Below, piece after piece: positions 15,826-44,268 of a DNA stretch of 59,500 bases; position 1 is the stretch's first letter; every line of letters begins with the position of its first letter. This DNA comes from Pirellulales bacterium (lineage in GTDB: Bacteria > Planctomycetota > Planctomycetia > Pirellulales > UBA1268): positions 1-59,500 of the forward strand of contig JBIIQM010000005.1 in assembly GCA_044342075.1 (NCBI GenBank), written 5' to 3'. The translations under genes were made by a program, and so were the position numbers. The notes beneath the pieces are model-generated. The model was not told where the DNA came from. It made no database searches and saw only the letters and a list, made by a program, of their open reading frames with translations.

Positions 15826-16781
15826 CACCATCGCAACTGGCCGCGCGGGCCGGGCCCACCCGCGGCCTCGGCGGCCTTCGCGGCCTCGAGCAGCCTGTCG
15901 AGCGCCGCGGCGTCGGCCTGATCGGGGAGCACGATCTGCACTTCGGCGATGAGATCGCCCTTCGCGCCATTCGCGTGCCGCACGCCCATGCCCGCAGCCC
16001 GCAGCTTCCGGCCGCCCGATGTCTTCGGCGGCACCTTGAGCGCGATCGTGCCCCATGGCGTGGGGACGTCGACCTTCGCCCCGAGGATCGCCTCCGCCAC
16101 GCTCACCGGCAGCGTGAGCTCCAGCGTGTCGCCATCGCGGCGGAAGACGGGATGCGGCTCGACCTTCACCTCCAGGAGCAGGTCGCCCGCCGGTCCGCCG
16201 CCCGTGCCTGGCAGCCCCTGGCCGCGCAGCCGCATCCGGGCACCGTCGGGCAGCCCCTGCGGAATCGTCACGCTGATCGTCTCGGTCTTGCCGTCGCGGT
16301 CGACCCGCACGTCGGTCTTGCCGCCATCGATCGCGAGCTTGAAGGGAATGTCGATCCGCGCGGTGACGTCCTCCCCCGGCGCCTGCGCCGGTCGGCGCCG
16401 GCCACGGGCCTTGGTGCCGCCGCGGCCGAAGATGTCGCCGAAGCCACCGCCGCCGCCGAAGAGGCTTTCGAGATCGATCTCGCCCCCCCCCGGAAAGCCG
16501 CCGCCGGGGAACGGGCCGCGGCCTCCGCCCCAGCCGCCACCGGGGCCGCCAGCGCCCACGCCCTCGAACGAGCTGCCGTAGCGGTCATACATCTCCCGCT
16601 TGCTCTGGTCGTTGAGCACGTCGAAGGCGGTCTGCACCTTCTTGAACTTCTCCTTCGCGGACTCGTCGTCCGGATGAAGATCGGGGTGATACTTGCGGGC
16701 GAGCTCGCGATAGGCCTTGCGGATATCTTCGGCGGAAGCCGTGCGCGGCACGCCGAGCGTCTGGTAATAGTCCTCCGCCAT
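15825..16781 (-). CDS. cbpA: DnaJ-class chaperone without Zn finger (CbpA-like)
   Basis: J domain with HPD, G/F-rich linker, DnaJ C-terminal domain (GDLLLEV, GDLIAEV), no CxxCxGxG repeats. Confidence 0.88.
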
Positions 16782-41635: not shown

Positions 41636-42235
41636 TCACATCCGCTGGCGGCCGGAAAACGCGTCGGCGAGCATCTCGCGATTTGCCTGCTCCAGCGACG
41701 CGCCCACGGTGAGGCCGCGGGCCAGCCGGGTGATCGTCACCGGCAGGCCGGCCAGCCGCGACGAGACCTCCAGCGCCGTGGCATCCCCCTCGACATTCGG
41801 CGTGGTGCCCATGATGACCTCACGGATGCCGCCCGCCTTCACGCGTTCGACGAGCCGCGGGAGCGTGAGCTTCTCCGGGCCCATACCATCCAGCGGCGCG
41901 ATCCTGCCGCCGAGCACATGATAGAGGCCGCGGTAGTTGCCCGCCTGCTCGAGCGCCAGAAGGTCGCGCACCTGCTCGACCACGCAGAGGACGGAGCGAT
42001 CGCGGCGGCCGTCGAGGCAGATGTCGCATTCGTCCTGCTCGGCGAGGTTGAAGCAGGTCTTGCAGGGATGGAGCTTCTCCTTGACGGCGCGGATCGCATC
42101 GGCGAAGGCGAGCGCCTCCTGATTCGGCATCCGCAGCACGTGGTAGGCCAGCCGCTCGGCCGACTTGCGGCCGATCCCGGGCAGGTCTGCGAAATAATCG
42201 ACGAGCCGGGCGATTGCCCCGCGGGTTTCAGCCAT
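41636..42235 (-). CDS. recR: Recombination mediator RecR
   Basis: LPGIGRKSAERLA, CKTC...CDIC, YHVLGGRIAPLDG, TPNVEGDAT. Confidence 0.96.
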   Translation of the reverse strand: MAETRGAIARLVDYFADLPGIGRKSAERLAYHVLRMPNQEALAFADAIRAVKEKLHPCKTCFNLAEQDECDICLDGRRDRSVLCVVEQVRDLLALEQAGNYRGLYHVLGGRIAPLDGMGPEKLTLPRLVERVKAGGIREVIMGTTPNVEGDATALEVSSRLAGLPVTITRLARGLTVGASLEQANREMLADAFSGRQRM

Positions 42236-44129
42236 CCATGCCTCCCAGGGAGCCTGCCGCGGCCTCTTCACCGGCTGCGGCATCGTCATTGGCCGCGACG
42301 GATGCCGCGGGAACAGTCGTCGTCTCCTGCGGTCGCGGTGGCTCCACCTTCCGCACCGCGGCGTCGAAAAGCGTGCGGGCGTGGGTCACGAGCGGGTGAT
42401 CCATCACCTCCCGCAGGAGCGCCGCCTGCGAGTGGACGGGGCGGGGCCGCTCCGGGGCCGCGGGCTCGCCCGCCGCGCCATTGGCCCGTGCGGCGGCAGC
42501 CGGCGCCGCGGCCACTGCCTCCAACACGATCGCGTACTTGAGCGGCCGGCCGGCGATCTCGCCGAGCACCCGCGCGAGGCTGGCCGCCACCTCCGGCCGT
42601 CGGAGAAACGAGACGGCGGTCGTCGCGTCGCCAGGCAGCGCCACCTCGAGCAGTTCGTCGCGCCAAGACGCCCGCGAAGCCATCGCGGCGAAGTCGGCCA
42701 CGAGTCCGCCCACGGCTTCGCCCGCCTGCAGCCAGGCGGCATGGGCGTCGGCCGGGAGCATCGCGGTAGCCGGCTCGACGGCGGGCTCCGCGACCGGCTC
42801 ACGCGCCGCTTCTATCACTCCTGCGGCGGCTTCATCATCAGCCGACGGGGCGGCGGCCACGGCCGCCGGCGTCAGGTCGGTCGTTTTTTTTTCGCGCTCG
42901 GGATCCGCCGGCCGCGCGGCCGGCGCAGATACGGGGGCGGCAGTCACCGCAGGCAGCCGCCGCGCGGCGGTCGCTGCCGAGGCGGGCTTGTCGGCGGGCG
43001 TGACGTGCACGAGCGCCGTGAGATTGTCGAGGTCCTCAAGCTTCGCCAGCCGCACGACGGCCATTTCCGCGAGCACGGCGGCATGGCCGCTCGTCCGCAT
43101 GCGGGCGAGCGCGTGGTCGATGATCTGCAGCATCGCCAGCAGCGTTTCCGTGCCGACCTCGCGGCCGATCGCGGCGAGGTCGACGCCGAGGCCCTGCCCC
43201 TGCAGGAGCGATTCGGGCCCGCAGCCCACGCTCGCGAGCAGGCAGTCGCGCAGGGCCGCGATCAATTGCTCGAGCACGCCGCCGGGATCGGCGCCGCCGG
43301 CGAGCGCCGCGTCGAGCGCCTCGATCGCCCCGCGCGGATCGCGGGCCGTGATCGCCGCGACGAGCGCGCCCACCTTCTCCTCGCGGCCCGTGCCGATCAC
43401 CGCGTGGACCTCGTCGACGCCGATCGGCCCGGTTGCCGAGCCGAGCAGCTGCTCGAGGAGCGACTGGCTGTCGCGCATGCTCCCCGCCGCCCGTCGGGCG
43501 ATCAGATCGAGGGCGTCCTGCGCCACGCTCGCCCCTTCGGCCTCGACGATCTGGGCGAGCCGGCGGGCGATCGCCGGCGGATCGACGGTCTGAAAGTCGA
43601 ACCGCTGGCAGCGCGAGAGGATCGTGATCGGCAGCTTCTCCGGCTCGGTCGTGCAGAGCACGAACTTCACGTGCGACGGGGGCTCCTCGAGCGTCTTCAA
43701 GAGCGCGTTGAAGGCCTCGCGGGTGAGCATGTGCACTTCGTCGATGATGTAGATCTTGAAGCGGCCGCGGGCGGGCCGCACGGCCACGTTCTGCCGCAGC
43801 TGCCGGATCTCGTCGATGCCGCGGTTGCTCGCGGCGTCGATCTCGACGACGTCGACGTCCTGCCCCGACGAGATCGCGCGGCAGGATTCGCACGCGTTGC
43901 AGGGCTCCGCGGCCGGCCCCCGCTCGCACTCGAGCGCCTTGGCATAGATTCGCGCGGCGCTCGTCTTGCCCACGCCGCGGGCGCCGGTGAAGAGGTAGGC
44001 GTGGCCGATCCGCCCGGTCTCGATGGCGCCGGAGAGGCCGCGGGCCACGTGCTCCTGCCCGACGAGCTCGTCGAACCGCTGCGGGCGGTAGCGGCGGGCA
44101 ACGACTTGGTAGGCGGCCGGCTCAGCCAT
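42228..44129 (-). CDS. dnaX: DNA polymerase III subunit gamma/tau
   Basis: ARRYRP, GARGVGKT, CERG..PCNACESC, EIDAAS, DEVHML, LKTLEEPP, SRC, GSMRD. Confidence 0.97.
   Translation of the reverse strand: MAEPAAYQVVARRYRPQRFDELVGQEHVARGLSGAIETGRIGHAYLFTGARGVGKTSAARIYAKALECERGPAAEPCNACESCRAISSGQDVDVVEIDAASNRGIDEIRQLRQNVAVRPARGRFKIYIIDEVHMLTREAFNALLKTLEEPPSHVKFVLCTTEPEKLPITILSRCQRFDFQTVDPPAIARRLAQIVEAEGASVAQDALDLIARRAAGSMRDSQSLLEQLLGSATGPIGVDEVHAVIGTGREEKVGALVAAITARDPRGAIEALDAALAGGADPGGVLEQLIAALRDCLLASVGCGPESLLQGQGLGVDLAAIGREVGTETLLAMLQIIDHALARMRTSGHAAVLAEMAVVRLAKLEDLDNLTALVHVTPADKPASAATAARRLPAVTAAPVSAPAARPADPEREKKTTDLTPAAVAAAPSADDEAAAGVIEAAREPVAEPAVEPATAMLPADAHAAWLQAGEAVGGLVADFAAMASRASWRDELLEVALPGDATTAVSFLRRPEVAASLARVLGEIAGRPLKYAIVLEAVAAAPAAAARANGAAGEPAAPERPRPVHSQAALLREVMDHPLVTHARTLFDAAVRKVEPPRPQETTTVPAASVAANDDAAAGEEAAAGSLGGMDG
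42884..42892 (-). other. A9 slippery run in dnaX
   Basis: Coding strand GAA AAA AAA ACG; TGA at 42872-42874 in one shifted frame and TGA-TGA-TGA at 42832-42840 in the other. Confidence 0.75.
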
Positions 44130-44160: not shown

Positions 44161-44268
44161 GATGCCGATGAGAGGCCCACCGCACAAAGAGACGACTGCT
44201 TATGGCTGCTGCGGTTAGGCCCTGACCAAGTTCACAGGTCCCCATCGCAGGGGCCTCTCATCGGCACC
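44161..44268 (-). ncRNA. ffs: Signal recognition particle RNA (4.5S)
   Basis: Long terminal stem (GGTGCCGATGAGAGGCCC / GGGCCTCTCATCGGCATC), helix-8 core GTGAAC..GGTCAGG....AGCAGCC, directly upstream of dnaX. Confidence 0.9.

Follow-up and report, generated by a model that had tools for sequence, protein, structure and literature searches.

Can a planctomycete make a second, shorter product from its dnaX gene by slipping on a run of adenines, as Thermus thermophilus does? The question is raised by a stretch of 59,500 nt from a Pirellulales bacterium (assembly GCA_044342075.1, contig JBIIQM010000005.1, positions 1 to 59,500; hereafter the window), in which the dnaX gene for the clamp-loader protein tau contains nine consecutive A residues (A9). 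The anatomy of the site, how rare the run is, its nucleotide-level conservation, the stop codons clustered behind it and the lack of stimulators of ribosomal frameshifting were all observed directly. Together they suggest that programmed recoding of the Thermus type takes place at the A9, with transcription as the main level of slipping and with tau and gamma as its products, a reading to which a probability of about 0.75 is given. Rated higher still, and apparently very likely, is that the run functions in recoding and yields truncated DnaX by slippage of some kind. The slipping itself, its mainly transcriptional level and the production and use of gamma are what we infer from these features.

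The gene lies on the minus strand, a point left unmentioned by the first-pass annotation of the window, all of whose numbers were correct. It starts with ATG and runs for 633 codons; an alternative GTG start lies 17 codons upstream, at 44180. The protein matches TIGR02397 (dnaX N-terminal region) at 1.8e-126, with 422 bits against a cut-off of 250, and is also above the cut-off of PRK05563 (NCBIfam). Pfam places DNA_pol3_delta2 at residues 25-182, DNAX_ATPase_lid at 187-229 and DNA_pol3_gamma3 (domain III) at 239-368, while the alignment to PRK14965 (NCBIfam) spans residues 6-597 and matches to the proteins of relatives extend to residue about 600-630. The closest named relatives of this DnaX are from uncultured Pirellulales (70% identity) and Aporhodopirellula (55%), which indicate a host of the planctomycete order Pirellulales; the first-pass annotation had rightly called it a planctomycete.

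The A9 run is placed in the DnaX linker, 45 codons past the end of domain III and before the tau-specific part (Table 1), the region in which gamma diverges from tau in E. coli and Thermus. Its position at codons 413-416 of a 633-codon dnaX, as first described, is borne out by the codons GAA AAA AAA ACG and by the TIGR02397 and Pfam identity of the gene. It is indeed the longest A/T homopolymer of the window, as had been noticed, with four A7 runs coming next; the window also contains a C9 run, at 16483-16491. The zero frame continues for 217 codons beyond the A9, and the gene is not of the type in which dnaX is divided between two open reading frames (ORFs). Both shifted frames, on the other hand, close quickly, at +6 and +18 codons counted from the start of the run. 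The two truncations predicted earlier were reproduced: loss of one A leads to a TGA after 418 amino acids (aa), with the end ...EKKRPT, and gain of one A leads to TGA TGA TGA after 430 aa, with the end ...RRPVG.

According to the proposed mechanism, RNA polymerase on the T9 template would hold a hybrid of A:T pairs only, on which the nascent RNA could realign, and the result would be mixed messages with nine A's or a few more or fewer. Full-length tau (633 or 634 aa, 65.7 kDa) would be translated from messages with 9 or 12. Those with 8 or 11 would pass into the +1 frame and stop after RPT, giving a gamma of 418 or 419 aa, whereas those with 10 or 13 would pass into the -1 frame and end 13 codons later, giving a gamma' of 430 or 431 aa; the sizes computed from sequence are about 44.2 and 45.4 kDa, respectively. 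The A11 and A13 messages use the same two frames as A8 and A10, with one Lys more. Two gamma forms would follow if both shifted frames are reached, by +1 and +2 insertions or by a -1 deletion. Both short forms would retain AAA+ clamp-loader domains I-III and lose the C-terminal part. In E. coli tau, the C-terminal part binds helicase and polymerase.

Table 1. Features of the dnaX locus, in positions of the window
Feature	Position	Strand	Remarks
dnaX coding sequence (tau)	42228..44129	-	633 aa, 65.7 kDa, zero frame; stop at 42228-42230; from ORF list, Pfam and NCBIfam
Clamp-loader core (AAA+ domains I-III, residues 25-368), common to tau and gamma	43026..44057	-	Pfam
Putative A9 slippery run (T9 on + strand), codons 413-416 GAA AAA AAA ACG	42884..42892	-	Phase 1
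Conserved 26-nt island GCGCG-A9-CGACCGACCTGA of family f1	42872..42897	-	Ends exactly at the +1-frame TGA
TGA, +1 frame	42872..42874	-	Predicted stop for gamma of 418 or 419 aa (tail EKKRPT or EKKKRPT), read from A8 or A11
TGA TGA TGA, -1 frame	42832..42840	-	Predicted stop for gamma of 430 or 431 aa (tail ...RRPVG), read from A10 or A13
C-terminal part of tau that the predicted gamma forms lack (residues 417-633)	42231..42881	-	Matches to relatives and PRK14965

The run is exceptional for its genome. In the whole assembly of 3,281,181 bp (67.6% GC) it is the sole A/T run of at least nine, where about 0.4 would be expected for independent bases at this GC content. There are 13 A8/T8 runs elsewhere, about half of them intergenic and the remainder without obvious pattern. 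Within the coding-like ORFs of the genome, Lys is encoded by AAA in 13% of cases and Glu by GAA in 27%, a usage under which E-K-K is spelled GAA AAA AAA about 0.5% of the time. Likewise, the dnaX run is the only A9/T9 in the entire genome for 7 of 23 genomes of the same family. Chance as the origin of the dnaX A9 is excluded by the conservation of the run in relatives.

That conservation was already evident in an initial sample of 40 relatives, in which 27 of the 30 loci fetched carried the run. The genomes sampled comprised 150 of the order (30 families), 90 of the class and 160 of the phylum, and 230 dnaX loci were fetched in all; figures for the class refer to 135 Planctomycetia dnaX genes from 37 families, scored for the longest A run at codons 340-460. 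Runs of A9-A11 are present in 116 of the 135 genes and 33 of the 37 families, at codons 359-443, just after domain III. The distribution of run lengths is bimodal with a sharp floor at 9: no run in 16 genes, A6, A7 and A8 in one gene each, A9 in 81, A10 in 34 and A11 in one. The first-pass annotation had named AAG codons at this position of orthologues as evidence that would speak against slippage; A9-A11, with no AAG, is kept by 78 of the 91 orthologues from Pirellulales and by 38 of the 44 from other Planctomycetia.

The codon phase of the run varies between families, and even within them (phase 2 in 62 genes, phase 1 in 45, phase 0 in 9), and comparison of flanks across Planctomycetia dnaX revealed no motif common to the class beyond the A run itself. 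Because the phase varies and the flanks are not shared, selection acts on the nucleotide homopolymer itself and not on a Lys motif, and the run is under strong purifying selection across the class. Tau is in frame for all class genes carrying the run except one (A11, genome G386). In some dnaX linkers slippery-type runs occur in tandem: A9 at codon 385 and A10 at codon 393 in locus L023 (G017), A9 and A10 four codons apart in L308 (G381), and two A9 in L162, from Leptospira.

Stop codons behind the run were analysed in the 113 class genes that carry it and encode tau in frame, using other positions in the same genes as controls. The median distance from the run to the first stop is 3 codons in either shifted frame (+1 and -1), whereas at control positions the farther of the two stops lies at a median of 70 codons; for 86% of the genes, the stop distance is under the 5th percentile of the controls from that gene. 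Nearby stops in both shifted frames are found in all but one of the class genes that keep the run. Such clustering would be expected of shifted frames that are both translated and have to be closed quickly. Conservation of the run and the nearby stops in the shifted frames thus lend comparative support to the Thermus-like slippage that the first-pass annotation had proposed.

In family f1, to which the window genome belongs, conservation is seen over the 26-nt island around the run. Identity among 26 members is 98% at positions -5 to -1 and 89% at +1 to +12, compared with 59-60% in the flanks. The best conserved stop of this family is that of the +1 frame, not of the -1 frame, and the EKKRPT* tail is present in 15 of the 26 members. 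What f1 conserves in the -1 frame is not the triple TGA of the window but the presence of a stop within about 5-20 codons. Conservation in the family also covers the zero-frame peptide REKKTTDLT. Metagenomes were scanned with a pattern permitting A8-A12 between the f1 flanks, which returned 41 contigs with the island in 31 distinct wider flank contexts, all of them with exactly A9. At one f1 locus of genus g4 (L020, genome G018) the run is interrupted at codon 398 by one substitution (AAAAAATAA); this break looks like a recent loss of the site, because four other g4 genomes retain the A9. At another locus, L016 (G009), a CAGTGC hexanucleotide tandem repeat of about six copies stands in the dnaX linker directly before the conserved island.

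Whether polymerase or ribosome would slip on such a run can be approached through the accessory elements of the site. The frameshift signal of E. coli dnaX includes an upstream Shine-Dalgarno-like element and a downstream stem-loop (the Rfam DnaX frameshifting element). Among 114 planctomycete genes, 15 have a Shine-Dalgarno-like motif of the GGAG/GAGG type 3-20 nt upstream of the run, against 12.3 expected, which is no excess, and the dnaX of the window has no such motif upstream of its run. Downstream windows of 45 nt are no more stable than others of the same genes (median percentile 0.55 over 113-114 genes). The downstream 111 nt in the window give a fold z-score of -1.65, with a hairpin that is not conserved, and an Rfam scan of positions 42500-43200 at E up to 10 returned noise matches only and no DnaX frameshift element. 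Thermus-type transcriptional slippage is preferred because these stimulators of the E. coli type were not found. Ribosomal frameshifting on a uniform A9 message, -1 on A_AAA_AAA or +1, would yield the same gammas without RNA heterogeneity, and seems an unlikely explanation of the whole. In its favour, the A9 contains an in-phase heptamer A_AAA_AAA, its last base being A and not the G of A_AAA_AAG; the rare AAA codons are decoded by a single tRNA-Lys(UUU) gene; E. coli dnaX undergoes -1 ribosomal frameshifting at A_AAA_AAG (PMC5009743); and poly-A sites are able to act at either level (PMC3711429). However, the genome has two tRNA-Lys(CUU) genes besides, unlike the single-tRNA-Lys state that makes the E. 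coli site so slippery (PMC5009743), and a frameshift to -1 is at odds with the better conservation of the +1 stop in f1. The floor at nine is also difficult to reconcile with a ribosomal heptamer, which needs only seven: A7 and A8 are found once each, against 116 genes with A9-A11, and this floor fits slippage by RNA polymerase, productive cases of which are reported on runs of 8-9 or more (PMC1088944, PMC3711429).

Explanations without slipping during expression fare less well. If there were no recoding and only tau were made, the run would have to be kept as a Lys-rich linker motif, as a DNA-level signal or as an antisense intrinsic terminator, and the conserved REKKTTDLT peptide of f1, together with a weak terminator-like hairpin plus T run that a simple scan finds on the plus strand at 42865-42881, would agree with this. 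It is nevertheless very improbable: the encoded residues change with phase between families while the run persists, AAA accounts for 35% of Lys codons outside the run in run-bearing dnaX genes and 13% in the window genome, clustered stops in both shifted frames are needed by neither a protein motif nor a terminator, the hairpin-forming flanks are not conserved beyond close relatives, and in some lineages the same run leaves tau out of frame. As a candidate in its own right, the antisense terminator (plus strand, 42865-42892, weak) was rejected and judged incidental, there being no plus-strand gene upstream and the hairpin arms not being conserved. Phase variation at the DNA level, in which replication slippage would alter the chromosomal run and cells would switch between tau and gamma alleles, is scarcely credible, although homopolymers are hypermutable (PMC1088944) and lineages are fixed at A9, A10 or A11 with differing frames. 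Tau is essential in the bacteria studied (10.1101/2022.11.10.516041), and an out-of-frame allele would be lethal without slippage in expression. Moreover, none of the 41 environmental contigs with the f1 island departs from A9, and among the class genes with a run and an intact ORF, 113 have tau in frame.

Several points weigh against slippage at transcription as the main source of gamma. The in-phase A_AAA_AAA and the tRNA-Lys(UUU) permit perfect re-pairing and a ribosomal slip in either direction, and the effect could be partly or wholly translational. The genome is a metagenome-assembled draft, and its run length is therefore a consensus. Finally, because the run is absent from 19 of the 135 Planctomycetia dnaX genes and from 87 of 95 in the rest of the phylum, gamma made by slippage would seem to be dispensable where the run is missing, or to be made by another route.

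Almost every lineage of the class Planctomycetia thus has the run, and its occurrence elsewhere in the phylum is patchy, with only 8 of 95 family-balanced genomes having it. It is also present in several named Phycisphaerae and in scattered members of other phyla, namely Ignavibacteriota, Fibrobacteria, a Desulfobacteraceae member and Leptospira. In four Planctomycetota loci, L215 (G175, family f35), L260 (G171, f32), L268 (G326, f32) and L282 (G386, f106), dnaX is of the two-ORF type. The run in these genes is A10 in f35 and f32, in the latter according to two independent, agreeing assemblies, and A11 in G386. Frame 0 stops 4-11 codons after the run, 173-239 codons are open in the frame reached by one extra A, and in that frame there is tau C-terminal homology or a long open frame. 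These genes count in favour of slippage because tau is out of frame at the same run; they would work only if slipping is efficient, with tau itself depending on it. The assemblies of G171 and G386 are complete or nearly so, and long-read homopolymer errors are still to be excluded there.

A different arrangement is seen outside the class in families f41 (L227/G264, L229/G282, L240/G243) and f70 (L232/G310, L241/G236, L246/G210). Here frame 0 of dnaX ends, without an A run, at a conserved stop on the gamma/tau boundary, about codon 380-390, in the contexts ...CCN CGN TAG GGCCG... (tail P-R-stop) and GGAAAAGCC TGA GGCCGG. For L227 and L229, tblastn shows tau C-terminal homology downstream in the -1 frame. 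Tau in these families may come from another type of frameshift, from readthrough or from a split gene.

The sources for slippage in Thermus dnaX are reportedly Larsen et al. 2000 (PNAS 97:1683) and Yurieva et al. 1997. According to PMC1088944 and PMC5009743, gamma of T. thermophilus arises by slippage on nine A's followed by stops in both non-zero frames, and this is established experimentally. The planctomycete site resembles it in being located in the same gene, with a sense-strand A9 downstream of the clamp-loader core and tau in one unbroken frame, and in its nearby stops in both non-zero frames, so that any change by other than a multiple of three would truncate the product to gamma and no RNA stimulators would be needed. 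It differs in belonging to the phylum Planctomycetota, and in placing the run at about 65-68% of the gene, compared with about seven-eighths in Thermus according to PMC1088944. Run length alternates between A9 and A10 among planctomycete lineages, unlike the Thermus case, and f1 adds its conserved 26-nt island with GCGCG and the +1 stop. The Thermus site is experimental, the planctomycete site a prediction from sequence.

As in E. coli, the predicted products are tau and a gamma of about 430 aa without the C-terminal domains, and the A-rich site has the same position after domain III. The planctomycete run is longer, at 9-10, and ends in A rather than G, with no Shine-Dalgarno-like element, conserved hairpin or Rfam match, and both shifted frames, not only the -1 frame, are closed nearby. 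Of the 17 two-ORF dnaX genes described by Antonov et al. 2013, 12 have poly-A runs (PMC3711429). These runs (A7-A10) likewise stand at the gamma/tau boundary and slippage is presumed there; the layout is shared by L215, L260, L268 and L282. The window gene, by contrast, is of ordinary polarity, with tau in frame and gamma as the slipped product. In Caulobacter crescentus, DnaX is processed by ClpXP (10.1101/2022.11.10.516041; PMC5009743), so that tau and shorter gamma forms also come from one gene, though by post-translational proteolysis that needs no slippery sequence. ClpXP-type proteolysis may be an additional route in planctomycetes without the run. Truncating cases like that of Thermus were noted by Baranov et al. 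2005 (PMC1088944) to be hard to find by their comparative method, and no report linking dnaX slippage with Planctomycetes was found in the literature searched. The planctomycete dnaX site is accordingly a well-supported new example, from comparative data, of a mechanism that is itself already known from Thermus.

Around dnaX, recR lies directly downstream and mutS is divergent upstream. The recR ORF as listed (41636-42289, minus strand) shares 62 bases with the 3′ end of dnaX, and the true recR start is probably an internal Met (MAETRG...). A ybaB-like gene is absent between dnaX and recR in the window; in several other planctomycete loci (L186, L188) a ybaB-like ORF directly follows dnaX. One of the relatives, the 3-kb contig CAYSPN010000029.1 (L093), is labelled 'uncultured Candidatus Kuenenia sp.' and carries a dnaX fragment 86% identical to the window Pirellulales protein. 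A genuine Brocadiia relative (Scalindua) has a DnaX of 45% identity; the contig is probably mis-binned.

Three unrelated routes to gamma are known, namely frameshifting, slippage and proteolysis, and why bacteria keep gamma is still an open question (10.1101/2022.11.10.516041). The present finding would add to the slippage route an entire, deeply branching class in which the site is under strong purifying selection, along with natural variants in which it has been lost or inverted. It may be tentatively suggested, at somewhat less than even odds, that poly-A slippage in dnaX is ancestral to Planctomycetia and was long held at A9-A10 as an evolvable dial of the tau:gamma ratio, with moves of phase, flips of polarity (G386, f32, f35) and losses. 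If this is true, the island of f1 would reflect selection either for how efficiently the site slips or for gamma's RPT tail. In practical terms, gene callers annotate tau only at this locus, with the consequence that gamma products would be missing from protein databases, and the homopolymer in dnaX should not be 'corrected' in assemblies. Cultured planctomycetes could serve as a second test system beside Thermus; among named relatives, the run is present in Gemmata sp. (A9) and Aporhodopirellula aestuarii (A10). The site may be unsurprising to the specialist, yet it is useful for the question of why bacteria keep gamma, and its retention across the class supports the view that the tau/gamma pair matters.

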